Notes: generated by a model from the letters alone, not told the origin. DNA of 64,000 nt from an uncultured bacterium (GCA_964388155.1 CAYLYH010000001.1:60331-124330), one strand, 5' to 3'; shown: positions 13,461 through 55,115, counted from the stretch's first letter. Numbers and translations: made by a program.

Positions 13461-14819
13461 TTAAAATTGCCAGTTCAATGAGAAGCGCATGGTGTTCGTC
13501 AGTGGATGACCAACCTCACCGGATGTATACCCAAAATCAAAACCATATTCGCCAAAACGAAGTCCAACACCGATAGTCGGATTAGCAATTTTTCCTGTTT
13601 TGTCGTAGTAAAACCCGGTACGCAGGGCAAAGTACTTTGAGTACCAATATTCAATTCCAAAATTATGAATTAATTTATCCAGTTCATTTTTAATTGAGCG
13701 TTTATCGCCACTTCCAACTTCTATATCGCCGTAAGCATTATATCGCCCCCAGTCCGGGTCACCGGGCTCAACATTATCTGTTCTAACCATTTCATTTTCG
13801 TCAGGTTTACCATCACCATCAGCGTCCATACTTACATCCCAATCCCACCCGCCAATCATGCCATCATTTTTTCCACCGTTTGGTGACAAATCCTGATCTC
13901 CACCCAACATCCAATCATCAACCCATGAGGTAAAAATGGCAAGATAGATCGGATCTGTATGCGCCATTTCTTTCGTGCCATCTTTATTATATTCACCATC
14001 CGGGTCTGAATGCCCCTCTTCGTCGTATCGTCCGACATAGCCATCGCCGTCCCAATCCATATCAGGATAGGAAGCAACCAGCATTTTATTCACATCATAC
14101 ACAAGATTTAATCGGTTATATTCTGAGTCAATCAGGTGGTAGTTAAAACCGAGCGTAAGGTTTGTGGGCTGGGGGTCTGCTTGAGCGGGATCAATAAACG
14201 CCACTTTTGGACCAATATTCGTTACCGTTGCGGCAACGTCTAATCGTGAGAGTAAAAATTCTTTGTGCAGGTAACCAAGATCAAATCCGAAATCAATGGA
14301 GGTCCCTTTCCCCTCTTCAGCTCCTGCTCCAAACTCTGTGAGGTGTTGGTAAGATATTTTGGCGTTGAGTCCGAAAGCTGAGTTCGATGACAGCATAGCA
14401 CCATAAGAAATCGTTGATGCCATCATAAAACTGGTAAAGACTCCCTGATAGTCATCAGGATGATCTCCCATCCTAATTTGCTCACCAAGATTTAAATAAA
14501 TGATATGACCTCCCAAAGTCCCAAGATGCTGAACATGACGACGAAATGCTAAAAAATCATAGTAAAGGTCGTCCGCCAAATTCGGTAACCAGTTGACGTG
14601 CATCATGGCAATTTCGGTTCCTTTTAGAAAACCAAGTCCTGCCGGATTCCAGTAACTTGCATATGCGTCATCAGCGATTGCGATTTGAGCTTCGCCCATG
14701 CCTCCGGCACGTGCTCCCGGAGAGATAAGCAGGAAAATAGCACCGGCTTCACTTTGCGCGAAACCATGACCGGTGATGGTCAGTGTGATGAGAAATGCAG
14801 TTGTGATAAAACGCTTCAT
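13461..14819 (-). CDS. PorV/PorQ-like outer-membrane beta-barrel protein with an Asp/Gly-rich insertion
   Basis: 452 aa with a signal peptide, the N-terminal motif SPGARAGGMGEAQIAIADDAYASYWNPAGLGF (PorV/PorQ-type) and a C-terminal ...RFSLNWQF. It lies immediately upstream of a T9SS cargo gene. Confidence 0.55.
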   Translation of the reverse strand: MKRFITTAFLITLTITGHGFAQSEAGAIFLLISPGARAGGMGEAQIAIADDAYASYWNPAGLGFLKGTEIAMMHVNWLPNLADDLYYDFLAFRRHVQHLGTLGGHIIYLNLGEQIRMGDHPDDYQGVFTSFMMASTISYGAMLSSNSAFGLNAKISYQHLTEFGAGAEEGKGTSIDFGFDLGYLHKEFLLSRLDVAATVTNIGPKVAFIDPAQADPQPTNLTLGFNYHLIDSEYNRLNLVYDVNKMLVASYPDMDWDGDGYVGRYDEEGHSDPDGEYNKDGTKEMAHTDPIYLAIFTSWVDDWMLGGDQDLSPNGGKNDGMIGGWDWDVSMDADGDGKPDENEMVRTDNVEPGDPDWGRYNAYGDIEVGSGDKRSIKNELDKLIHNFGIEYWYSKYFALRTGFYYDKTGKIANPTIGVGLRFGEYGFDFGYTSGEVGHPLTNTMRFSLNWQF

Positions 14820-24661: not shown

Positions 24662-25477
24662 CTACTCTATGTTTAATTGTTTTAAAGTTTCTTTTGCTTT
24701 TTCGTAATATTCGCTTCCGGGGAAATAATCTACCAATCGTTGATATTCCTCACGAGCTTTCTCAAAATTACCCATACTTTGATGAGCCAGTCCCAGTTTT
24801 AACTGAGCATCATCATCTTTGTCTGTCCCGGGAAAAGTGAACACTTTCTCAAACTCTTTTACTGCATGTTTATAATTTTTCAGCGAATAATAGCATTCCG
24901 CTAACCAATATTGACTATTATCTGCCAACTCATTCATCGGATCGTTTATAACTAACTTGGAGAATCCGGTAATGGCTTCCTCATAGCCTCCATTTTGATA
25001 GTAGCTTAAACTCTCAATATATTTCTTTTTATATTCTGCCGGGCTAATTTTAGCGGGGTGAGAGGGTGAAGTCTTGCTGGATTTCAAACTATACATCTCC
25101 GTAAAACTACTCGTCAAGGTGACAATTTTATTCTCAATCATGACAAGCTGAGCTAGTAATTCAAAATTTGTACTGTCAACATAAGCAGCTTTATCTTCTA
25201 AGTGACTTATTTTGTTTTGCAAAGTATTAATACGATTAATCAACATAATTGCCACGGAATCCGTTTGTTGTTTAGCATTGACTGTAGCCCGAAGTGTGTT
25301 TCTGAGATCCGGTAGCAAAATGCGAATTTCTGTTTCTAGCGAATCAATTCTTACTTTTTCGCGATTTATCTTTGCATTTAATCTTTTTAATTCCCGTGAG
25401 GTACTATTTTGGGCAAAGCAAATACCGCCAAGAATTACAAATATCAGAATATTTTTAAACATACGTATTTTATTCAT
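24662..25477 (-). CDS. Coiled-coil + TPR periplasmic protein (CpoB/YbgF-like)
   Basis: 271 aa with a signal peptide, an N-terminal coiled coil and C-terminal TPR repeats (YY..G.Y..A...F). It ends in TAG. Confidence 0.5.
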   Translation of the reverse strand: MNKIRMFKNILIFVILGGICFAQNSTSRELKRLNAKINREKVRIDSLETEIRILLPDLRNTLRATVNAKQQTDSVAIMLINRINTLQNKISHLEDKAAYVDSTNFELLAQLVMIENKIVTLTSSFTEMYSLKSSKTSPSHPAKISPAEYKKKYIESLSYYQNGGYEEAITGFSKLVINDPMNELADNSQYWLAECYYSLKNYKHAVKEFEKVFTFPGTDKDDDAQLKLGLAHQSMGNFEKAREEYQRLVDYFPGSEYYEKAKETLKQLNIE

Positions 25478-44676: not shown

Positions 44677-45723
44677 TTAATAGTGAAGCTCTCCTACCGT
44701 GGTTAATTTTTCCAGCCACTCGATGGGACAGACAATATCCGTGGCGTGGCGTACAAAGGTTACACCGGATTTTGCTACAGGCAACGGGTTTACTTTTTTC
44801 CCAAGCGCCAAATCAACAACCATTTTCGGAAGATTCTGATCAGCGCCTGTGCACAGATAAATCCATGCAGGGAAACGCGGATTTATTTCAATTAAGTGCA
44901 TCTTTTTCGTTTTTTTATCCTGAAGGATTTCTAATTCACATGGTCCCGCCCATTTTAAGGCTTTCAATATTCTTTTGGACAAATCATAAAGTTTGTCATT
45001 TTTCAACGTAATTGCTGCCCAGGCTTTTCCTTTATCCGTGAGACGTGTTTTCCGAATAGGAACTGCACCAAGCATCGTTCCGTCTCTATCGCCAACACAG
45101 CAAATATCGTATTCATCCGCTTCGATGACTTCTTGAAGAATGATTGGGTATCCCCATTTTGTTCGCATTTCATCAAAATGCATTAGCACTTCAACCTTTG
45201 TCCGGCATTTAAATGCTTCATAAAACACGCCTTTGACCATTAACGGAAATCCGATTTCTTTAATAGCTTTATCCAGTTCTCCGGGTTCTTTTATCACCTT
45301 TGTTTTTGGTGAATCAATATTATTCTCTTCACAAAAATCCGCGATATATGCTTTTGATACTTTTTTCGACACATCAAGCTTCGGCAGAAAAACAGCAATG
45401 CCTGCTTTTTTTAACTCCGGTTCGAGTCGTTGAAACAGAGCGAGTTCACTATCCAATGTTGGGATAATTACATCCATCCTGTTCTGATCGTGTATATACA
45501 AAAGTCTTTCCAGAATTAGTTTACTGTTAGTATTCGGGTACGGAATCATGTACGAGTGATCCAATAAATCCTCATCATAAATTCCGGTATCCATGACATC
45601 ATAGGCAAGTCCAATGATTTCGCCATCCCAACCATTCGGATGTTTCAAACTTCTGATTACGCCAATCCCCGGTGCGGGATTGTCGGTGGCATGAAGCCCT
45701 GTAATTCCTACATTAATTCCCAT
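44677..45723 (-). CDS. ATP-grasp ligase (carboxylate-amine ligase type)
   Basis: 348 aa with an N-terminal Rossmann-like pre-ATP-grasp domain, a central ATP-grasp region (FPLMVKG..., ILQEVI) and the C-terminal catalytic loop HLIEINPRFPAW. Its start overlaps the PqqD-like stop (TAATG). Confidence 0.75.
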   Translation of the reverse strand: MGINVGITGLHATDNPAPGIGVIRSLKHPNGWDGEIIGLAYDVMDTGIYDEDLLDHSYMIPYPNTNSKLILERLLYIHDQNRMDVIIPTLDSELALFQRLEPELKKAGIAVFLPKLDVSKKVSKAYIADFCEENNIDSPKTKVIKEPGELDKAIKEIGFPLMVKGVFYEAFKCRTKVEVLMHFDEMRTKWGYPIILQEVIEADEYDICCVGDRDGTMLGAVPIRKTRLTDKGKAWAAITLKNDKLYDLSKRILKALKWAGPCELEILQDKKTKKMHLIEINPRFPAWIYLCTGADQNLPKMVVDLALGKKVNPLPVAKSGVTFVRHATDIVCPIEWLEKLTTVGELHY

Positions 45724-45968
45724 TAGTCGATTAATCCTGCTTCTTTTAATTGTCGGTAAAAATCATCAATATCTTTTCTGGCTGTTTCTTCATCGACGTC
45801 AAATTCTTCCATAATTAATTCCAGCATTTTATTCGCATGGACTTCTTCTTTCATTTTCATAAAAATGAATTGTCCCGTTTCATTTAATGAATAGGTCAAG
45901 CCGGTTCCGTGATCGAACAGAAACCCGCTGTCGCTTATCGTTACTTCTGAATTAAAATTTCCACTCAT
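45723..45968 (-). CDS. PqqD-family (RRE-like) small protein
   Basis: 81 aa. The layout is beta-strands then helices, as in PqqD: FLFDHGTGLTYSLNETGQFIFMKMKEE.....LELIMEEFDVDEETARKDIDDFYRQLKEAGLI. Confidence 0.6.
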   Translation of the reverse strand: MSGNFNSEVTISDSGFLFDHGTGLTYSLNETGQFIFMKMKEEVHANKMLELIMEEFDVDEETARKDIDDFYRQLKEAGLID

Positions 45969-46017
45969 ATTTATTTCCTTTTTATGTCCTAATCTTTATC
46001 CTAATCCTAATTCCATC

Positions 46018-46461
46018 TTAATCCTCATACCCTTTCATGACATTCAGTAAACCGGATTTATAGACAAGAAGTTCGGAGAAATGAAACCCGTTTACTTTAC
46101 ACCAGTAACAATAATCTAATGTACAGTCAACTTTGTCTACTTTTTCGCTCCATAAAGCGACTTCAAAGCTCCCGCCCAAAAGAGGTTGGTCTACCTGTAT
46201 CTCATGTGAAAGATGTCCATTTTCCAGTTCGATATGACTGTGTCTTCCTCCTGCCTGTACATCCAGTGTCCCATAAGGATATAACGATATCCCTAACCAT
46301 GCTATGTCTAAATGCGAATATCCGCTGATGAGAATATTTGTCGGCCAGCCATAGTCTGCATTGACAACAATATCTACAGAAAGTTCTGATTGACTTTGTG
46401 CATGAACCGTGCTAACGAGCGCACTCATCATGCTAAAATATATTATTAATTTCCTCATCAA
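46018..46461 (-). CDS. Hypothetical secreted protein
   Basis: 147 aa with a signal peptide (ALVSTVHAQ), a His-rich middle (GGRHSHIELENGHLSHE), a Cys cluster (CTLDYCYWC) and an acidic C-terminus (GYED). Confidence 0.45.
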   Translation of the reverse strand: MMRKLIIYFSMMSALVSTVHAQSQSELSVDIVVNADYGWPTNILISGYSHLDIAWLGISLYPYGTLDVQAGGRHSHIELENGHLSHEIQVDQPLLGGSFEVALWSEKVDKVDCTLDYCYWCKVNGFHFSELLVYKSGLLNVMKGYED

Positions 46462-47423
46462 AATCTCCCTTGAATCCCTATTGCCCCGTAAACGACATGA
46501 TATCGAGGATTTTCAATCAAAGGTTGAAATTCCTGATATGAGACAACCCCTGTTAAGCGCCAATTAATAAACACTCTCCATGAAAGTCGAAATGATGCAG
46601 ACTTTCTAAGAAAATCCGGGTTATTATTCAGCAACAACAATGCCGGTTCAATTGTATATCGGCTCTTCCCGAATCCGGCAGAAAGTGTACTCCCCAATTG
46701 ATCCGATATTGTCCAAGTCCATACTCCGGATGTTGTCGTTAACATGTCTGTATTAAATTGTTGGACACTTCCTCCCAGTCGGACAATATGGTTCCCAATT
46801 CGACGACTAAGTTGGATGCTCCATTGATCTACCGGCTCATGGATGTAATAATCATAGACGTAAGTTGTATCAGTAAATTCGTTGGATTCATCATACCGGT
46901 ATTCGTCGGATTTTCGGTAGATATACTGGTAATCGGATCGGATATAAGATGTTGCATATCCCACCCAAGGTAAGTCGCCGGAGATTTGCACACCAACAAC
47001 CCAACCGTGATGTTCATCTTTTGATTTTTTTATGATATCTCCGAATGAATTAGATGTATCTACAACCGTTGTAAATGTCGTATCTGTTTTAAACAACCCA
47101 ACGATACCACCTACACCAATTTCAGGTTTTATATAAAAATAATCCCGCCCAAAGAAGTTTGTTTGGTTATAGGTTTTTTCGCCACCACTGATTGTTATTT
47201 TTTCCACAGCCAAAGAAAATCGATCTTTCCAACGTTTGTCCATAGAAAAATACCCCATTTGAGACTTATATATTTGTCCGGTGGAGTATTCTCCATGCGT
47301 ATAATAACTACCCATTGACAGATTCCAAGGATACAGAAGACTGGAGATATCTTTGGCGTTCGTTCCTTGAACTATCAGCAAAACCATACACACCTGAAAC
47401 CATGTATTTCGTACGTTTAACAT
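46458..47423 (-). CDS. Hypothetical outer-membrane beta-barrel protein
   Basis: 321 aa with a signal peptide, an alternating beta-strand pattern and a C-terminal ...GAIGIQGRF. It overlaps the downstream gene by 4 nt. Confidence 0.5.
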   Translation of the reverse strand: MLNVRNTWFQVCMVLLIVQGTNAKDISSLLYPWNLSMGSYYTHGEYSTGQIYKSQMGYFSMDKRWKDRFSLAVEKITISGGEKTYNQTNFFGRDYFYIKPEIGVGGIVGLFKTDTTFTTVVDTSNSFGDIIKKSKDEHHGWVVGVQISGDLPWVGYATSYIRSDYQYIYRKSDEYRYDESNEFTDTTYVYDYYIHEPVDQWSIQLSRRIGNHIVRLGGSVQQFNTDMLTTTSGVWTWTISDQLGSTLSAGFGKSRYTIEPALLLLNNNPDFLRKSASFRLSWRVFINWRLTGVVSYQEFQPLIENPRYHVVYGAIGIQGRF

Positions 47424-47431
47424 AATTTTTC

Positions 47432-48433
47432 CTATTTTAACAGCACCATAGAGCGACTGTAAGATGTGTTATCAGATTCAATTCGGCAGTGATAAATTCC
47501 GCTTGGCATTTTTCTTCCATAATGATTATGACCAAACCATGTAAATTTATAATTCCCTTGTTCTAATAATTTGTCGCACAATGTCATCACTTCCTGACCT
47601 GCTGAATTATAAATTTTAACGGTAACATTCGAAGTTTTCTCAATGGTTACCGGAATTTGCGTCGCCGGATTGAATGGGTTTGGAAAGTTTCTACCCACGC
47701 TAAAATGATTAGTATTAGTTGCATTTTCATCTGTGGCAACATTTCCATTAAATTGCAATACATTCAAGGTGTAAATCTCACTTTCATAGTCATAAAGATT
47801 ATAGAGTATCTCTTTTTGCGGATCTGTGTCCATATTCCCCACATAAGGACCTGCTATATAGCCGTCAAACAAATCACTTTCCCATTCAAGAGTGCCATCC
47901 AATGCATTATAAATTAATATTTTACTCGTATATGTTGAGGTTTCATAGTTAAAATCATTTATTCCCATGATAATTTCTTCAACACCATCTTCATCAATAT
48001 CATTCGAATCTAAGAAATATACTGTCCCCTGAAGTTCAGATGTTTCCCAGGCGGGATCCGATTCAAAGATTGGCCATGCAGCTACTTTGCAACGATAAAT
48101 TGGATCATAACTGGTTGAAATCATAATTGCAAACCGAACTCCATAATTTTCAAGTTCGTAAATCTCATAGATATTTAAGTAATCATAGTTTGTATCTGTG
48201 ATTTCCCAACTTGGTTCGTATGCATTATCCCCATCGAAAAAAGCAACATTATTCAACCATATCTTTACTAAATCTTTCGTCCCATCATCGTTTAGATCAA
48301 AATAAATAATTCCTTTCTCAGATGCATCTTGATTAACCTGCCATTCTAATGAATACTGGGCAGATAACATCGTTGCTGCCATAAGTATTAATAGTATCGT
48401 TCTGGTTTTATTTATGTTTTTCATACGTTTCAT
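47432..48433 (-). CDS. T9SS-sorted secreted protein with FG-GAP-like Asp-rich loops
   Basis: 333 aa with a signal peptide, DLNDDGTKD / DSNDIDEDGVEE / GNMDTDPQKE loops and a C-terminal sorting domain (NFPNPFNPATQIPV...VKIYNSAGQEV...GIYHCRI). Confidence 0.7.
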   Translation of the reverse strand: MKRMKNINKTRTILLILMAATMLSAQYSLEWQVNQDASEKGIIYFDLNDDGTKDLVKIWLNNVAFFDGDNAYEPSWEITDTNYDYLNIYEIYELENYGVRFAIMISTSYDPIYRCKVAAWPIFESDPAWETSELQGTVYFLDSNDIDEDGVEEIIMGINDFNYETSTYTSKILIYNALDGTLEWESDLFDGYIAGPYVGNMDTDPQKEILYNLYDYESEIYTLNVLQFNGNVATDENATNTNHFSVGRNFPNPFNPATQIPVTIEKTSNVTVKIYNSAGQEVMTLCDKLLEQGNYKFTWFGHNHYGRKMPSGIYHCRIESDNTSYSRSMVLLK

Positions 48434-49500
48434 TTCAATAATAGTCCTTTTTTAGTATGTTGGGTGTTATTTGAAGTTAGACGAAAAAAGTAAATTCCGC
48501 TAGGAACATTTTCTCTGTTATTGTTTATCGCCTCCCATTTCTCGGTGTAGCTTCCTGCCGGAAGCACGTCATCAACCAAGGTATTTACTAATCTCCCTGT
48601 GATGTTGAACACCTGCAATTGAATGTAAGACTTTTTTGGTATATTAAATTTGATGGTCGTCACAGGATTAAACGGATTTGGATAGTTTTGACTCAAACTG
48701 TATCCATCTGGTAAACTAATCTTTTGTTTTTGAATTATAAATTGTGCATCATTTCCAATTTTTATATTAGACACCCCTTTCCCTGAAAGGTTAATAACAT
48801 CGCCTGTTTTTTTATTCGTAAGTGTCCAGATTGATTCATCCATGATGTAGTACTTAAAATCTACCCATTCCTGATCACCTGATATTTCAAGTACGCTCTC
48901 GTCTTCACATACTTTCCACCCGCCTGTAAAACGAACGTCAAATACTCCCGGCGGCGGTTTGGGAGGTAAACTATAACTAAGTCTATGTTCATCAGGGATA
49001 TCCACTCCAAAGTACAATGTATTCCCATTGATGGTCATCGTATTCATCCCTGCAAGCTTGCTTGGCATTGATTCGGTTTCTCTCATGACAGCAGTATTAT
49101 TTATTGTGATGAATCCATCTCCATAACTTCGTAACCAGTACCCTTGACCAAGACTAATATTTTCTGCATTTGAATATCCGTTTAATCCAAATTGATAGAT
49201 TGTTCCGGGGATTATAATTTCTTCAGGATCTACTATCGCGTCAATATTCACCGGATAAGATATGCCTGATATTAAATTCCATCCTTCTGTGATTGAGATT
49301 TCAATTTCATCCAAAATATCACCGGTAATTACATTTGAACCCTCATTCTCAAATCGAAGCCAATAACCTCTCCCTATATCCAATGAGTCCTCTTGTATAT
49401 ATTCATCAAAATAAAACGCATAGAGTGTGTTTTCAATGGCATCAGGGAATATGCTATTAGACGCGCAATTTTCACAGCCAACCGGAATACCAATTAAATT
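48430..49500 (-). CDS. C-terminal portion of a split or readthrough secreted protein: 'G(R/Q)GYWLR' repeat modules + T9SS sorting domain
   Basis: The ORF track starts this at TTG 49383, but the frame is open for 39 more codons up to the TAG at 49503..49501, with no ATG/GTG/TTG in between. The product has no signal peptide. The C-terminal domain reads NYPNPFNPVTTIKF...LQVFNITGRLV...GIYFFRL. Confidence 0.6.
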   Translation of the reverse strand, partial: NLIGIPVGCENCASNSIFPDAIENTLYAFYFDEYIQEDSLDIGRGYWLRFENEGSNVITGDILDEIEISITEGWNLISGISYPVNIDAIVDPEEIIIPGTIYQFGLNGYSNAENISLGQGYWLRSYGDGFITINNTAVMRETESMPSKLAGMNTMTINGNTLYFGVDIPDEHRLSYSLPPKPPPGVFDVRFTGGWKVCEDESVLEISGDQEWVDFKYYIMDESIWTLTNKKTGDVINLSGKGVSNIKIGNDAQFIIQKQKISLPDGYSLSQNYPNPFNPVTTIKFNIPKKSYIQLQVFNITGRLVNTLVDDVLPAGSYTEKWEAINNNRENVPSGIYFFRLTSNNTQHTKKGLLLK

Positions 49501-50736
49501 CTAGTCTTGAAAATGCTCCATGGTTAATGTTAATTCTGAGTCATACTCAAAGGCACCGATATCAGGACTCTCACCATCGTAATCATCCGGCGATATGTCA
49601 ATAACTTGCTGCCCTTGCCATTGATATTCAGTTGTTCCGGCATCGATACAAGGAGATGCTTCGAGTAGTGAATAATCTTGGTTTTCAAAGTTTGTAAACA
49701 GGGGATCTTCGTCCATATTTCCATCAAACCAATTTACCCATCCGCTATTATAGGTTTCAATTGTCGCCTCCCCTCCTTCAATATTGGAATAGGCTGCTTC
49801 AAATAACATAGCAGGTGAATCCGGCCAAAAACAAATCTGTGGTAAATCGTTATTTCTGATAATCGTGTTGACGGACAAAACTGCAGATTGATTCTGAAGC
49901 ATGATTCCACCGCCAACAATATTTGAGATATTGTCGACGAGTGTAACTTGGTTTAGCACCAGAAATGATTCTCCCCATGTTTTCACCCCACCACCCACAT
50001 CTGCGGAGTTATTATAGATTGTAGTATTGTTCACCGTTACCGTAGCCACGGAAATCGACAGCCCGCCTCCGTTTGGTGATTCGTTATCATATATTTCCGC
50101 ATGATTTATGACGGAACCCTCAGAATGTACAAGAATCATTCCTCCACCGGCATAAGGTGAATAATTCTCCAATACCTGTATATCCTCAAATATTAACGAG
50201 CAGTAATTCGTATATATTCCGCCGCCCTGACTTGTTTCTGTGCCAATTGCTGTGTTTGCTTTCACGGTGATATGTTTTAATAAAGAAGATGAATTATATA
50301 ACGCAATCCCACCTCCTCTTTCGGCAGTATTTTGATAAAGAACTAAATGTCGTAATATCGGGTTTGAATTAAGCACATATATACCACCACCGAAAATATA
50401 GGAATCTCCCTGAGTGCCGCTTCCATTTATTAATGTAAATCCCTGAAAAACTGATCGTGAATCTTCCCCATTCTCAAACACGACAACAGAGCCATTTTGA
50501 TCTCCGTCAATGATAGTTTCATTCTCTCCTTCTTCAGATAGCAATACTAAGTTTTTACCGTTGTAATTGATGTTCTCAACATAAGTACCCGGTGAAACTA
50601 AAACCGTATCTCCATCTATTGCGGTATCAATTCCATTTTGGATGGTGGGTTGTTCAACCGGGACATGAATTGTGGACCCTATAATGAATGTGATAAACAG
50701 AGCGAATAAAAAAGACCGACTAATTAAATCATTCAT
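49501..50736 (-). CDS. Secreted right-handed parallel beta-helix protein (PbH1-type repeats), terminated by a TAG in frame with the next ORF
   Basis: 411 aa with a signal peptide and repeated GGGIY/GGGI turns every ~23 aa. The C-terminal 'DEDPLFTNFENQDYSLLEASPCIDAG' segment is typical of beta-helix adhesin/lyase-like proteins. It has no T9SS domain of its own. Confidence 0.7.
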   Translation of the reverse strand: MNDLISRSFLFALFITFIIGSTIHVPVEQPTIQNGIDTAIDGDTVLVSPGTYVENINYNGKNLVLLSEEGENETIIDGDQNGSVVVFENGEDSRSVFQGFTLINGSGTQGDSYIFGGGIYVLNSNPILRHLVLYQNTAERGGGIALYNSSSLLKHITVKANTAIGTETSQGGGIYTNYCSLIFEDIQVLENYSPYAGGGMILVHSEGSVINHAEIYDNESPNGGGLSISVATVTVNNTTIYNNSADVGGGVKTWGESFLVLNQVTLVDNISNIVGGGIMLQNQSAVLSVNTIIRNNDLPQICFWPDSPAMLFEAAYSNIEGGEATIETYNSGWVNWFDGNMDEDPLFTNFENQDYSLLEASPCIDAGTTEYQWQGQQVIDISPDDYDGESPDIGAFEYDSELTLTMEHFQD

Positions 50737-50808: not shown

Positions 50809-51162
50809 CTATTTACAACAGCCCTTGTGAGTTGATTTTTCCCAGAATTTGAATTTCCACCCTCCGGATTTCTTACTGTGACCACATTTATCGGCTTTTT
50901 TGCATTCAGCCGGGTTTTCACATTTTTTTCCCTCGTGAGGACAATCTGTTTTTTTACACTCATTAGGATCTTCACCTTTTTTCCTTTCATGCGGACAATC
51001 AGCTTTTGTTGCTTCAGTACCATTCTGATCTTCTGCATTCACGACTGCTGTCTTTTGGCATTTTCCTTTTTCGAATCCGCCTTTTTTACAGCAGGCTTTT
51101 CCTTGAGCACTCATCAATGATATACTTAGTATCAACGTCAGTAGTATTGATAGTTTCTTCAT
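50809..51162 (-). CDS. Small secreted Cys/His/Lys-rich protein (putative periplasmic metal-binding protein)
   Basis: 117 aa with a signal peptide and a mature part carrying 11 Cys. It includes a duplicated DCPHE(R/G)KK...(N/A)ECKK module and CCK motifs at both ends (KACCKK ... KGCCK). It is the last gene of the efflux operon. Confidence 0.55.
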   Translation of the reverse strand: MKKLSILLTLILSISLMSAQGKACCKKGGFEKGKCQKTAVVNAEDQNGTEATKADCPHERKKGEDPNECKKTDCPHEGKKCENPAECKKADKCGHSKKSGGWKFKFWEKSTHKGCCK

Positions 51163-51184: not shown

Positions 51185-51559
51185 TTAATTTGCCAATCTC
51201 ATCGGCAAGAGTTTCATCCCACATTGATCGCAGGTTCCGGGTTTATCAGATCGAATGTGGCTGTGCATCAACATCGGGCAACCATAATAGTCCATCTTTT
51301 CTTCCGATGTTGTCACACCTGCTACCAATGTCATGCCGCATTCTTCACATTTCCCGGCTTCACGGCTGCGAATATGCTTATGACTTTCCATCGGACACGT
51401 GTAATAGATTAACCGTTCCTCATCTTGATTTTGCACTTCAGCCATTTTAGGACATTTATGCCTATCTTTCTTTGCAACTTCAGTACACTCTTTTTTTCCT
51501 CCGCAACCGGCAATCAATATAACTGCACTGATAAGTAGGATTGTTTTTGTTGTTTTCAT
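51185..51559 (-). CDS. Lipoprotein with two tandem 'CPM...H.H....C..CGM.L' heavy-metal-binding domains
   Basis: 124 aa with the lipobox LIAGCGG. The two copies are YYTCPMESHKHIRSREAGKCEECGMTLVA and YYGCPMLMHSHIRSDKPGTCDQCGMKLLP. Both are variants of the TCPMHP...CP.CGM.L domain also present twice in the adjacent adaptor protein. Confidence 0.65.
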   Translation of the reverse strand: MKTTKTILLISAVILIAGCGGKKECTEVAKKDRHKCPKMAEVQNQDEERLIYYTCPMESHKHIRSREAGKCEECGMTLVAGVTTSEEKMDYYGCPMLMHSHIRSDKPGTCDQCGMKLLPMRLAN

Positions 51560-51587: not shown

Positions 51588-54500
51588 TTATTGAGTTCTG
51601 TTCAATTCTCTTTCTTTTACCATAGCATAAATAATCGGTACAACAAATGTTGTCATAATTGCAAAGACCATTCCTCCAAAGGATGGAATCGCCATAGGGA
51701 TCATTACATCTGCGCCACGTCCTGTAGATGTAAGAATTGGCATTAATGCCAGTAAAGTTGTGGCTGTTGTCATCATGGCAGGTCTAATTCGCCGCATTCC
51801 GGCTTTAACAGTTGCTTCTCTGATTGCATTTATCGTAGTCGGATTCTCTTCATCAAACTGTTGCTCTAAATATGTACTGATTATAACACCGTCATCAGTC
51901 GCAATTCCGAATAATGCCAAAAAACCAACCCAGACAGCTACACTCATATTCACCGGATGCATCCGAAATAAATCTCGTATGTTTTCTCCAAATAAACTGA
52001 GATTTAAAAACCAATCTTGGCCATATAACCAAAGCATGACAAAGCCGCCGGACCATGCGACAAATATCCCGCTAAATACGATTAATGTAGTAGATGCACT
52101 CTTGAAATGAAAGTATAGGATTAAGAAGATAAGTACTAACGCAACAGGTAAAACCACCGCCAACTTTTTTGAGGCTCTAATCTGATTTTCATAAGAACCA
52201 GCAAACGTAAAACTCACTCCGGCGGGTACGTTTAATGTACCATTATCAATGAGTAGATTGAAATACGATTGAGCTTCTTCAACCACATCCACTTCTGCCC
52301 ATTCACTCAGTTTATCAAACAAAACGTATCCAACGAGAAACGTATCCTCACTTTTAATTACTTGAGGTCCTCTGACATAATTTATTGTCGACAACTGTCC
52401 CAACGGAATTTGCACCCCGCCCTGTCCAGGGATCAATATCCTGTCCAGAGATTCCATGTTACTACGGTAATCCCGTAAATACCGAACCCGAACGGGGTAA
52501 CGCTCACGTCCTTCTACTGTAGTGGTAATGGGCATTCCTCCAATCGCAACTTCGATGGCGTGCTGAACTCTCTGTAGAGGAATTCCATATCGCGCAATGG
52601 CACGACGGTCAATGTCAATTTCCAAATAGGGTTTTCCAACGATTCTGTCCGCAAAAACCATGTCGCTTTTAACACCCGGGACATTTTTTAAGTGTTTTTC
52701 CAATTCCAGTCCGAAAGCATCGATTGTTGACAGATCAGGTCCTTTTATTTTTATCCCCATCGGTGCTCTCATTCCGCTTTGGAGCATCACCAGTCTGGCA
52801 GAAATAGGCTGCAGTTTCGGTGCTGATGTCGTTCCGGGGATTTGTGCAACTTTCACTAGCTCATCCCAAATATCATCTGCGGAGCGAATATGCTCCCGCC
52901 ATTGTCGAACGCGAATTCCGTTTTTATCCAATCCGTATTCCGATTTATAAGCAATGATGGTTTCTACCATGCTCAAAGGTGCGGGATCTAAGGGCGAATC
53001 TACTCTCCCGATTTTTCCTACTACCGATTCTACTTCCGGTACGGAATACAACGCTTTATCCAACAGTTGCAAGACGTCGATGGTTTCTTCCATCCCTGCA
53101 TGTGGCATGGTGGTTGGCATATAAAGAAATGATCCCTCATCTAAGGGCGGCATAAATTCCTTACCAAAACCGGGAAAGGTGTGGCTCATGGCTGTAAACG
53201 GACGTGTAGAGCGGATAAACTCCGGCATCCAACTGAATATTGAACCAAAACCTAACCAAACGACTAGCCCAAACGTTATCACTAAAGCCGGCAATGAGAG
53301 TGCTTTTCGCTTATGATCAAGCGCCCAACGAAGAATGGTTGGATAGATCTTCGTAAACCCTGTAATTGCGGACATGATCAGGGCGATAAGAAATCCTGCA
53401 AACAGAAAATTCAAAAAGAACACTTTTTCTAATCCTAATGGTGACCATGTGGACGATAAAATAATGACAACCATGAGGACAACAATCCCGTTTCCTAACC
53501 ATGGTATTCGTTTAAACACGGCGATTTCTATGTTGAATCGTTTTTTCTTTTTCCCTAACAATAGATATGCCATCACTGGCAAAATGCATAAAGCAATTAT
53601 GATGGATGCAATGAGGGCGAATGTTTTCGTGTACGCCAAAGGTTTAAAGAGCTTTCCTTCTGCGCCGATCATCGTGAACACCGGCAGGAAGCTAATGACC
53701 GTCGTGGACACGGCCGTCAGCACCGCCCCTCCGACTTCGGAGACAGCCTTGAAAATAATGTCTTTTGTTGCTTCTTTCGCCTTTTCAAGATGCTTTAAGA
53801 TATTTTCCGTTACGACAATACCCATGTCTACAATGGTTCCAATTGCAATCGCAATCCCGGATAATGCGACAATATTTGCTTCCACTTTAAAGAGTTTCAT
53901 GCCGATAAATACCATGAGAACCGTCAATGGAAGCATGCCCGAGATCAGCAAAGACGTCCGAAAATGCATGACCATGACCAAAATGACGACAATCGTGATC
54001 AGAATTTCATCCCGCAATGCATGATTCAGTGTATTCAGAGTTTCATAAATTAACCCTGTCCTGTCATAAAAAGGAACAACGGTTACTTGACTCAATGTTC
54101 CGTCGGCGAGAGTCTTTTTAGGCAGCCCCGGAGCGATTTCACGTATCTTGTCTTTTACGTTCTTAATTGTTGCCAGTGGATTTTCACCGTACCGTGCGAC
54201 GACCACACCGCCAACAGCTTCTGCACCTTCCTTGTCCAGCACGCCACGACGAAGCGCGGGTCCAAGCGTCACCTGGGCAATATCTTTAATATAAATTGGA
54301 ATATTGTCTAGCGTTTTTACGACGGTAAATTCTATATCCTCCAAGGATTTGATGAACCCCAATCCGCGCACCATATACTCCACGCGGTTGATTTCCACCG
54401 TCCGAGCACCGACGTCCAAATTGGATTGACGCACGGCATTAAATACTTCGGTCAATTGTATGCCGTGTTCACGCATCGCCATCGGATCTACATCAATCTG

Positions 54501-55115
54501 ATATTCCTTTTGAAACCCGCCAATGGATGCCACTTCTGACACACCATCTGCCGATTGAAGCGCGTACCGAACCGTCCAATCTTGCACGCTGCGAAGTTCT
54601 TCTAAATCCCAGCCACCTGTTGGATTCCCGTCTTTGTCGCGGCCTTCCAATGTGTACCAGAAGATCTGCCCTAACGCTGTGGCATCTGGACCTAAAGCCG
54701 GCGAAACACCAGTAGGTACCGTCCCGCCCGGCAGAGAATTGAGTTTCTCCAAAATACGTGAACGTGACCAGTAAAAATCCACTTTCTCATTGAAAATGAC
54801 ATAAATTGTGGAAAATCCGAACATTGAATATGAGCGGATGGTTTTCACGTTTGGTATTCCCAACAACGCGGTCGTCATGGGATATGTAATTTGGTCTTCG
54901 ATATCCTGCGGACTTCTTCCCGGCCACTTTGTAAAAACAATTTGCTGGTTTTCACCGATATCCGGGATGGCATCGACCGGCACCGGGTCTCGCGGTAAGT
55001 CGCCGAGGTTCCAATCGAATGGCGCAACCATGATACCCCATACCACAGCTGCGATGAGAAGAATCGCTACGATTAAAGAATTATCGAGAAAGTATCGTAT
55101 TATTTTATTTAACAT
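51588..55115 (-). CDS. Heavy-metal efflux RND pump, CusA/CzcA family
   Basis: 1175 aa with a 12+ TM RND architecture and typical HME-RND segments (ALSGIAIAIGTIVDMGIVVTENI, GIATDDGVII). An SD (GGAG) lies 8 nt upstream of the ATG. Confidence 0.9.
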   Translation of the reverse strand: MLNKIIRYFLDNSLIVAILLIAAVVWGIMVAPFDWNLGDLPRDPVPVDAIPDIGENQQIVFTKWPGRSPQDIEDQITYPMTTALLGIPNVKTIRSYSMFGFSTIYVIFNEKVDFYWSRSRILEKLNSLPGGTVPTGVSPALGPDATALGQIFWYTLEGRDKDGNPTGGWDLEELRSVQDWTVRYALQSADGVSEVASIGGFQKEYQIDVDPMAMREHGIQLTEVFNAVRQSNLDVGARTVEINRVEYMVRGLGFIKSLEDIEFTVVKTLDNIPIYIKDIAQVTLGPALRRGVLDKEGAEAVGGVVVARYGENPLATIKNVKDKIREIAPGLPKKTLADGTLSQVTVVPFYDRTGLIYETLNTLNHALRDEILITIVVILVMVMHFRTSLLISGMLPLTVLMVFIGMKLFKVEANIVALSGIAIAIGTIVDMGIVVTENILKHLEKAKEATKDIIFKAVSEVGGAVLTAVSTTVISFLPVFTMIGAEGKLFKPLAYTKTFALIASIIIALCILPVMAYLLLGKKKKRFNIEIAVFKRIPWLGNGIVVLMVVIILSSTWSPLGLEKVFFLNFLFAGFLIALIMSAITGFTKIYPTILRWALDHKRKALSLPALVITFGLVVWLGFGSIFSWMPEFIRSTRPFTAMSHTFPGFGKEFMPPLDEGSFLYMPTTMPHAGMEETIDVLQLLDKALYSVPEVESVVGKIGRVDSPLDPAPLSMVETIIAYKSEYGLDKNGIRVRQWREHIRSADDIWDELVKVAQIPGTTSAPKLQPISARLVMLQSGMRAPMGIKIKGPDLSTIDAFGLELEKHLKNVPGVKSDMVFADRIVGKPYLEIDIDRRAIARYGIPLQRVQHAIEVAIGGMPITTTVEGRERYPVRVRYLRDYRSNMESLDRILIPGQGGVQIPLGQLSTINYVRGPQVIKSEDTFLVGYVLFDKLSEWAEVDVVEEAQSYFNLLIDNGTLNVPAGVSFTFAGSYENQIRASKKLAVVLPVALVLIFLILYFHFKSASTTLIVFSGIFVAWSGGFVMLWLYGQDWFLNLSLFGENIRDLFRMHPVNMSVAVWVGFLALFGIATDDGVIISTYLEQQFDEENPTTINAIREATVKAGMRRIRPAMMTTATTLLALMPILTSTGRGADVMIPMAIPSFGGMVFAIMTTFVVPIIYAMVKERELNRTQ

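Follow-up and report, generated by a model that had tools for sequence, protein, structure and literature searches.

Cargo of the type IX secretion system (T9SS) of Bacteroidota and other FCB bacteria requires a Sec signal plus a C-terminal sorting domain, so that a typical cargo protein has an N-terminal signal peptide, one or more domains and a sorting domain of ~80 aa at its C-terminus. The choice-of-anchor Q family (NF041518), as its name indicates, precedes alternative C-terminal anchors; the right-handed beta-helix family PF13229 is found among homologues of the protein described here. Two further kinds of described system are relevant to an in-frame TAG codon in such a gene. In classical amber (TGG>TAG) segregating pseudogene alleles, one transition at a conserved Trp separates two coexisting alleles and secondary decay is absent. 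In programmed readthrough or recoding, a long open frame with homology of its own continues beyond an in-frame stop. Programmed readthrough is rare in bacteria, in which near-cognate suppression of UAG ordinarily runs at 1e-4 to 1e-3.

We analysed a 64-kb stretch of DNA (64,000 nucleotides; 'the window') from an uncultured bacterium, in which a gene of the T9SS cargo type is split by a TAG codon. The intact allele of this gene has the cargo layout outlined above; in the window allele, by contrast, signal peptide and sorting domain lie on opposite sides of the stop. With a probability that we put at about 0.9, one 768-aa T9SS cargo gene has here undergone a true amber nonsense mutation, TGG (Trp412) to TAG, and the resulting allele segregates in a near-clonal population. 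So read, it is an ordinary natural loss-of-function variant belonging to a known class of event, and neither a recoding signal nor an assembly error. There is no difference of substance from classical amber alleles; the one notable point is that the broken allele is found in nearly all public assemblies. The likeness to readthrough sites is superficial: unlike those, the stop in the window is unconserved and has neither a stimulatory RNA structure nor a dedicated tRNA in the window.

A single reading frame interrupted by one TAG

Translation of the minus strand from 50736 to 48430 gives a single frame of 768 sense codons whose only interruption is the TAG (411 codons, one stop, 356 codons, then TGA; Table 1). 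A preliminary description of this locus had reported that the 411-aa ORF ends at this TAG and that 39 in-frame codons incapable of initiation then lead into a 317-aa ORF, and both statements are borne out. The 39 codons (NLIGIPV...IQEDS) contain no ATG, GTG or TTG, and a mechanical ORF list consequently opens the 317-aa ORF at TTG 49383. Gene callers start it at the same place because of the SD-like AAGAGGA upstream, and this TTG is called as the start in all public contigs, although in the intact protein it is an internal Leu codon. Across the 39 codons the translation matches the start of a conserved module (W-NLIGIPV ... TLYAFYFD). Judged from sequence, the continuity of the frame across the TAG exceeds chance, since homology to single-chain proteins crosses the stop. 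The TAG does not lie in any homopolymer or repeat, and on the coding strand it differs from TGG by G>A at 49502 (C>T on the plus strand).

Same-frame ORF pairs at 13461, 20041, 23829 and 28571 were considered as further split genes and rejected: their stops are TAA and an ATG start follows within 0–24 nt, as at normal compact gene junctions.

Table 1. Features of the interrupted gene, in window coordinates.
Feature	Position	Strand	Basis or content
Whole reconstructed gene	48430..50736	-	768 sense codons, internal TAG and final TGA (single-frame translation)
N-terminal half (411-aa ORF)	49504..50736	-	Signal peptide, beta-helix-like repeats, choice-of-anchor-Q-like segment, first residues of module
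Probable Sec signal peptide, residues 1 to ~23 (MNDLISRSFLFALFITFIIGSTI, then HVP)	50668..50736	-	Hydropathy and homologues
Choice-of-anchor-Q-like segment, residues 353–399	49540..49680	-	Sub-cut-off NCBIfam match
Amber TAG replacing a probably ancestral TGG (Trp412)	49501..49503	-	W in 47/47 homologues; TGG in contig L162
39 sense codons, no possible start codon	49384..49500	-	Homologous to start of conserved module
SD-like AAGAGGA (49394..49388), four bases, then TTG (49383..49381)	49381..49394	-	Sequence reading
Module of ~280 aa, interrupted by TAG	48685..49536	-	Homologues, AlphaFold2 model, internal repeat
T9SS type A C-terminal sorting domain, residues 273–351 of the 356-aa C-terminal half	48448..48684	-	PF18962, TIGR04183

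Domain organisation of the two halves

The N-terminal half begins with a hydrophobic, signal-peptide-like segment, as had been proposed. Kyte-Doolittle means over nine residues reach 3.0 across residues 8–20, after Arg7, and homologues start in a similar way (for example MKFTSILFFTPFLFATLIHVP in P0023); the signal peptide is thus a prediction from hydropathy and homologue starts. By the same hydropathy measure the C-terminal half lacks such a start. The PbH1 beta-helix assigned to the 411-aa ORF in the preliminary description fares less evenly. The sequence itself gives only sub-cut-off matches (Chlam_PMP, 19.8 against a cut-off of 20.6; NosD, 27.5 against 300), whereas homologues at 34–40 % identity carry PF13229, PF05048 or PF02415 in precomputed annotations. 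A near miss to choice_anch_Q (NF041518; 22.7 bits against a cut-off of 25, covering model positions 15–58 of 58) is treated as a resemblance only. The last ~11 residues of this half (ELTLTMEHFQD) already belong to the start of the downstream module, the boundary being set by the alignment and by P0217, a relative in which module and sorting domain stand alone behind their own signal peptide (MKSIKTIILLLSPFVTLSAQ-SITIDYQTGW...).

The module matches no Pfam or NCBIfam family, and the sorting domain is the sole match within the C-terminal half. Within it, two W-N-L-I-S-G ... G-x-G-Y-W-L-R repeats occur together with a PPKPP segment and additional beta-sandwich domains; in related marine proteins the module stands behind several different N-terminal domains. 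The two repeats align with each other (BLASTP E = 1e-7) and are kept in homologues, and the called TTG start does fall inside a repeat unit, as previously suggested. An AlphaFold2 model of the C-terminal half is all-beta with a mean pLDDT of 87.3. In a Foldseek comparison with the PDB, the module matched only generic Ig-like and fibronectin-like folds that give no functional clue, and the C-terminal end matched the T9SS sorting domains of PorU (6za2), PorZ (5m11) and RemZ (8gl8_D). The sorting domain lies at the extreme C-terminus (...KKGLLLK-TGA) and scores above the curated cut-offs (PF18962, 39.2 bits against 27; TIGR04183, 38.8 bits against 23). The 317-aa ORF therefore has the T9SS domain without a hydrophobic start that had been ascribed to it. 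The adjacent gene (47432..48433) also encodes a sorting-domain protein.

Homologues place a tryptophan at the stop

Five single-chain homologues of 709–793 aa cover 89–99 % of the fused sequence and align through the position of the stop. In an alignment of 49 sequences, the stop column is W in all 47 that cover it, so the sense codon that an orthologue alignment might reveal, an analysis proposed in the preliminary description, is indeed found in relatives. The Trp sits within a conserved (D/G)-W-N-L-x-G-x-P motif in which the N and P after the W are invariant. The parts of the protein also occur in other combinations: the beta-helix part is followed by a dockerin in P0002 and directly by a sorting domain in P0109, and the C-terminal end of P0023 consists of the module and sorting domain. 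These alternatives fit the choice-of-anchor name.

A search of genome and metagenome contigs with the fused protein returned no same-species genome, and none of the relatives exceeded 47 % identity in its best segment. The names of these distant relatives are for this reason the basis on which the host is placed, and they suggest that this uncultured marine bacterium belongs to the Marinimicrobia / Fidelibacterota. Literature searches on T9SS in Marinimicrobia and on the sample accessions yielded nothing useful. The large protein searches omitted P0242, the representative of the cluster containing the window's N-terminal half, yet exact look-up finds it in the same collection; absence from those search lists is therefore weak evidence, and the decisive data came from exact-sequence look-ups.

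TAG and TGG alleles in public assemblies

In 54 index blocks of public assemblies, the truncated 411-aa product occurs with exactly the same sequence, and the longest contig bearing the gene measures about 225 kb. We fetched ten near-identical contigs (99.6–99.99 % identity) from ten different samples, comprising JGI metagenomes 3300009105, 3300007510, 3300008735, 3300009375, 3300013112 and 3300013118 and ENA assemblies ERZ23498668, ERZ23498983, ERZ23499038 and ERZ23499048. Nine of the ten have TAG at the site, each with 1–15 other base differences from the window in different SNP combinations, and two flanking SNPs occur with the TAG allele in all four possible combinations. The tenth, L162 (JGI 3300009105), has TGG. 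Over 7377 nt it departs from the window at three positions (99.96 % identity), TAG>TGG among them, and it encodes P0246, a single chain of 768 aa equal to the read-through translation of the window with W in place of the stop at residue 412. The two ORFs thus correspond to the halves of one protein, as had been argued from the sequence of the window. The cluster at 90 % identity contains five 411-aa variants and P0246 as its one 768-aa member. The TAG allele is accordingly seen in nearly all public assemblies and the intact TGG allele once, and of the origins first proposed for the stop, a nonsense mutation present as a population variant is the one that agrees with both alleles being found. 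It is conceivable that the lone TGG contig reflects a quirk of consensus building or assembly; the distant homologues would support an ancestral Trp even then. A degenerate junction pattern that left the stop's middle base as N had 0 matches in the metagenome_contigs collection, which evidently is without samples holding this population.

None of the ten contigs has a second disabling mutation in the downstream half. Total divergence among them is ~0.01–0.1 %, leaving aside a 28-bp inversion in L170, and this leaves too little time for decay; the intact downstream half, though also expected if it were still translated, is therefore uninformative on translation. All seven SNPs within the gene are nonsynonymous (five in the N-terminal half, two in the C-terminal half), but nearly all SNPs in neighbouring genes are likewise nonsynonymous, and seven SNPs are too few for dN/dS-type reasoning to show relaxed selection.

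Alternative explanations for the interrupted frame

If the TAG were a sequencing or assembly error, the true genome would have a sense codon and a plain single ORF, and the TGG of L162 is what such a genome would look like. Nine contigs from nine JGI and ENA samples with differing SNP combinations nevertheless share the TAG, the truncated protein recurs in 54 index blocks, and the site offers no homopolymer or repeat to mislead assembly; the preliminary description's option of an artefact is refuted by these counts, and we give it next to no weight. Decoding of TAG as an amino acid in the host, whether by reassignment throughout the genome, by pyrrolysine or by a dedicated amber suppressor tRNA, is just as implausible. 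Its one positive indication is that a nearby ATP-grasp protein (44680..45723) matches PylC-like_N weakly, at 21 bits where the cut-off is 27, but this model describes a generic ATP-grasp N-domain and the protein matches ATPgrasp_Ter better. Relatives lead one to expect Trp at this position rather than pyrrolysine, and the window contains no tRNA gene and hence none with a CUA anticodon. TAG also terminates eight of 50 long ORFs in the window, including those ending at 24662 and 30971, in keeping with the earlier remark that reassignment is unlikely. Several of these stops lie only a few residues from the end of a Pfam model: the TMEM164 gene ends in TAG at the end of its model (positions 16–217 of 217), and so does the T9SS sorting domain of a neighbouring gene (model positions 2–72 of 75).

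The halves might instead be two genuine genes, one for a periplasmic beta-helix protein and the other for a module and sorting-domain protein translated from TTG 49383. The SD-like sequence four bases ahead of that TTG would suit such an arrangement, as would the existence of at least one relative, P0217, in which module and sorting domain stand alone, and the other C-termini of the beta-helix part in P0002 and P0109. The 317-aa ORF, however, begins within the first module repeat and has no signal peptide, so that the T9SS domain of its product could never reach the periplasm. Homology moreover spans the stop and the 39 start-less codons, and an allele one base different at the stop is a single 768-aa ORF. 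We consider separate genes highly improbable. Slightly more room, though still very little, is left for low-level or programmed readthrough of the UAG, by which the gene would give some full-length, T9SS-sorted protein next to an untethered 411-aa form, the allele being retained because each is useful. TAG is the common allele in public assemblies, the downstream frame is intact in ten of ten contigs, and the base after the stop is A; UAG-A is a comparatively weak termination context in E. coli. Set against this, the stop is not conserved, with Trp in every relative and TGG in one contig of the same population. No stable RNA structure lies near or after it: the 151-nt fold gives z = +0.93, and 163 of the 200 shuffled sequences reached a fold that was as good or better. 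The tRNA scan of the window, empty as noted above, counts here too, and an intact downstream frame is expected anyway at ~0.1 % population divergence. The two-isoform option raised in the preliminary description thus finds no support.

Expected consequences of the amber allele

In its intact form the protein would start with a Sec signal peptide, continue with a right-handed beta-helix region, the choice-of-anchor-Q-like segment and the ~280-aa beta-sandwich module, and end in a T9SS type A sorting domain. One G>A transition would have turned the conserved Trp412 codon into TAG, and translation would now end after residue 411. The truncated beta-helix protein could presumably still cross the inner membrane via Sec but would not be delivered to the cell surface, because the sorting domain that the T9SS translocon requires is lost. 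The downstream 356 codons, with neither a signal peptide nor a proper start, would at most be expressed by re-initiation at the internal TTG, giving a cytoplasmic fragment on which the sorting domain is useless. The amber allele would then amount to a recent loss of function in a surface or secreted protein, of the kind that gives rise to pseudogenes.

That this allele is favoured rather than merely drifting, a reading prompted by its presence in nearly all public assemblies and on every flanking-SNP combination against one sighting of the intact allele, seems to us improbable. Loss of the protein from the surface might allow escape from a phage or grazer for which it serves as receptor, or cut cost in a streamlined genome; alternatively, rare UAG readthrough might provide a small, regulated amount of surface-displayed protein beside the periplasmic form.

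The locus is of modest biological value as a loss-of-function polymorphism found in nature, affecting a surface or secreted protein in an uncultured marine lineage. Its practical use lies in annotation: dozens of public assemblies list the 411-aa ORF and the 317-aa ORF as two hypothetical proteins, although together they make up a single disrupted T9SS cargo gene, and the 317-aa 'protein' with its TTG start is in all likelihood a gene-caller artefact. The locus also provides a worked example of how an in-frame stop in a metagenomic sequence can be settled from public data alone, by combining the residue conserved in relatives with the alleles of independent assemblies. Finally, it draws attention to a widespread, unannotated module of ~280 aa with a beta-sandwich fold that precedes T9SS sorting domains.

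One reading frame interrupted at a conserved tryptophan

Translated directly on the minus strand, the frame opened by the ATG at 50736 runs for 411 codons to the TAG at 49503..49501 and continues past it for 356 further sense codons, ending at the TGA at 48432..48430. ORFs were listed mechanically, each starting at the first ATG, GTG or TTG following a stop, so the 39 codons between the TAG and the TTG at 49383 hold no possible start. Every gene caller predicts the 317-aa ORF because a Shine-Dalgarno-like AAGAGGA, read from the sequence, lies four bases upstream of this TTG, and the two together could permit some re-initiation. The same codon is an internal Leu in P0246, the product of the intact allele in the public protein collection. 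This 768-aa protein matches the read-through translation of the window exactly, residue 412 being W, and the preliminary description of the two ORFs as one ~768-aa protein was exactly right; the internal repeat it reported is also real (repeat 1 against repeat 2, BLASTP E = 1e-7).

Positions of the split gene's parts and of surrounding features
Feature	Position	Strand	Size	Source or match
N-terminal ORF	49501..50736	minus	411 aa	mechanical ORF list
Downstream ORF	start TTG 49383	minus	317 aa	mechanical ORF list
C-terminal module	48685..49536	minus	~280 aa	no family in Pfam or NCBIfam
Gene directly downstream	47432..48433	minus	333 aa	signal peptide, T9SS sorting domain
ORF at palindrome	46458..47423		321 aa	
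Palindrome	47398..47425		28 bp	inverted in L170, 4007-4034
PqqD-family and ATP-grasp genes	44677..46000 (L161:4861-6152)	minus	81 aa and 348 aa	PF15632 ATPgrasp_Ter (348 aa)
Cys/His-rich ORF	50809..51162	minus	117 aa	no Pfam match
Neighbour upstream of Cys/His-rich ORF	51185..51559	minus		heavy-metal-binding-domain protein (PF19335)
Neighbour upstream of Cys/His-rich ORF	51588..55115	minus		RND pump (PF00873)

The intact allele has the predicted layout of a typical T9SS cargo protein, the known class of which the split gene is an amber-broken member: signal peptide, beta-helix-like region, choice-of-anchor-Q-like segment, ~280-aa module and sorting domain. Near the start of the N-terminal half, Arg7 precedes a markedly hydrophobic segment (Kyte-Doolittle means over 9 residues reach 3.0); the same kind of scan finds no signal-peptide-like stretch at either possible start of the C-terminal half, which carries a type A sorting domain (PF18962, 39.2 with a cut-off of 27; TIGR04183, 38.8 with a cut-off of 23). 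The earlier beta-helix label stands mainly through homologues, the window protein's own matches being near-threshold only (Chlam_PMP, 19.8 vs 20.6; choice-of-anchor Q, 22.7 vs 25; NosD). The module begins about 10 residues ahead of the TAG, as judged against P0217, a homologue in which the signal peptide leads directly into SITIDYQTGW-N, and contains two W-N-L-I-S-G...G-x-G-Y-W-L-R repeats, a PPKPP segment and beta-sandwich domains. At least 225 protein clusters from marine metagenomes have the module after N-terminal domains that are unrelated (proteins P0122-P0240); these domains include beta-helix, PF09603 and leucine-rich repeats by precomputed Pfam hits and FG-GAP-like and lamin-tail-like segments by eye. 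In one case, P0217, a signal peptide is all that precedes the module. The C-terminal half, modelled with AlphaFold2, is all-beta, and the model is confident (mean pLDDT 87.3). Searched against the PDB with Foldseek, the module gave nothing beyond generic Ig-like or fibronectin-like matches, and the last ~80 residues matched the sorting domains of PorU, PorZ and RemZ.

Single-chain homologues of 748 aa (P0023), 709 aa (P0069), 762 aa (P0062), 793 aa (P0115) and 787 aa (P0097) span 89-99% of the fused sequence, and all five place Trp opposite the window's TAG, within the motif (N/G/D)-W-N-(L/M)-x-(S/G)-(L/I)-P. Among 49 aligned sequences of the C-terminal module, all 47 that cover this column have W there, with N next in 48 of the 49 and an invariant Pro five residues beyond. 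The second copy of the internal repeat also opens with W-N-L-I-S-G, and the stop therefore takes out the first conserved residue of repeat 1. A single G>A transition converts TGG to TAG. The nearest relatives carry the names Marinimicrobia, Neomarinimicrobiota, Fidelibacterota and Cloacimonadota. The large protein-collection search missed P0242, which represents the cluster of the window's own 411-aa protein and is present by exact look-up, and negatives from that search are weak.

Both alleles in public assemblies

The cluster of the exact 411-aa product comprises six sequences, five of them 411-aa variants and the sixth P0246, whose 7377-bp contig (L162; JGI sample 3300009105) has three base differences from the window, one of them at the middle position of the stop. 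The exact 411-aa protein was found in 54 index blocks of the assembly collection, from which 24 contigs of up to ~225 kb were read. For allele comparison, one contig was fetched from each of ten samples (six JGI, four ENA); the ten are 99.64-99.99% identical to the window, with TAG in nine and TGG in one, and population divergence is ~0.1% or less. Differing combinations of other SNPs show that these contigs are not duplicates of a single assembly. SNPs 47174 and 46552 show all four combinations among the window and the ten contigs, a four-gamete pattern, which means either that the population recombines or that the consensus assemblies are chimeric. TAG occurs on all four combinations, and the TGG contig shares its combination with the TAG-bearing contig L165. 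All seven SNPs in the split gene are nonsynonymous, as are most in neighbouring genes.

Origin of the in-frame stop

The preliminary description had offered a nonsense variant, a sequencing or assembly error, or translational readthrough. Since TAG recurs in nine contigs from nine samples with differing SNP combinations, an error in the window is excluded. That TAG is a genuine terminator elsewhere in the window, as also claimed, is borne out by 8 of the 50 longest non-overlapping ORFs, and several Pfam models finish at the protein end: TMEM164 is matched over positions 16-217 of 217 in a 231-aa protein ending in TAG, and the sorting-domain match of the adjacent downstream gene (model positions 2-72 of 75) stops five residues before its TAG. 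The window's cytidylyltransferase and nucleotidyl transferase genes are also TAG-ended. A scan found no tRNA genes within the window, and the predicted fold of the 151-nt stretch spanning the stop and its 3' flank is no more stable than those of shuffled sequences (z = +0.93). The residue expected at the TAG is Trp, and the sole Pyl-like signal in the window is a sub-threshold match to a generic ATP-grasp N-domain. Taken together, the TAG-ended genes, the lack of a tRNA gene and of structure, and the expected Trp leave reassignment, pyrrolysine and structured readthrough signals unsupported. Programmed readthrough has two defining features that can be tested, conservation of the stop and a stimulatory structure; both were tested, and here the stop is not conserved and no such structure was seen. 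The TAG is very unlikely to be a recoding site. Where other neighbouring ORFs in the window share a frame, the junctions are ordinary: the stop is TAA, and an ATG follows no more than 24 nt later.

With both alleles present in public contigs, the nonsense variant is the explanation that holds: one allele has the gene as a single ORF, in the common allele an amber codon at the position of a conserved Trp disrupts it, and the variation is a classical case of a TGG>TAG amber allele that segregates in a natural population. The TGG contig represents a surviving ancestral allele or a revertant, a consensus quirk being less likely; whichever way it is explained, the ancestral codon is Trp. No second lesion has accumulated downstream of the TAG, from which it follows only that the mutation is young compared with the pace of gene decay; on continued function this is mute.

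Proteins exported by the T9SS first pass the inner membrane through Sec and are recognised afterwards by way of the sorting domain at their C-terminus. The 411-aa truncation product would thus be expected to reach the periplasm and not the surface, and the downstream part, having no signal peptide, would be useless even if translated. We consider it improbable that the broken allele is favoured, or leaky by design. The main value of the finding lies in correcting an annotation repeated in dozens of public assemblies.

Neighbouring genes

The split gene's TGA and the ATG of the gene directly downstream share bases (ATGA), so the two genes are probably co-transcribed; the premature stop might therefore also affect expression of the downstream gene through polarity.

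In L170 (JGI 3300013112), another near-identical public contig, an imperfect palindrome centred on CGTACG is exactly inverted. It includes the ATG (47423) of the 321-aa ORF, and in the inverted form the frame from this ATG meets a TAA after seven codons. Possible origins of the inversion are a template-switch (quasi-palindrome) mutation, a very small invertible switch and an artefact of assembly.

The 117-aa ORF begins with a signal-peptide-like segment, carries four Cys/His-rich repeats in tandem (~CPHE-x-KK-x-E-x-P-x-ECKK-x-D) and lies directly behind the genes for the heavy-metal-binding-domain protein and the RND pump. It probably encodes a small metal-binding protein of the periplasm that belongs to a metal-efflux cluster. 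Downstream of the split gene, a few genes away, a PqqD-family gene adjoins an ATP-grasp gene, a pairing that recalls peptide-modification (RiPP-type) clusters.
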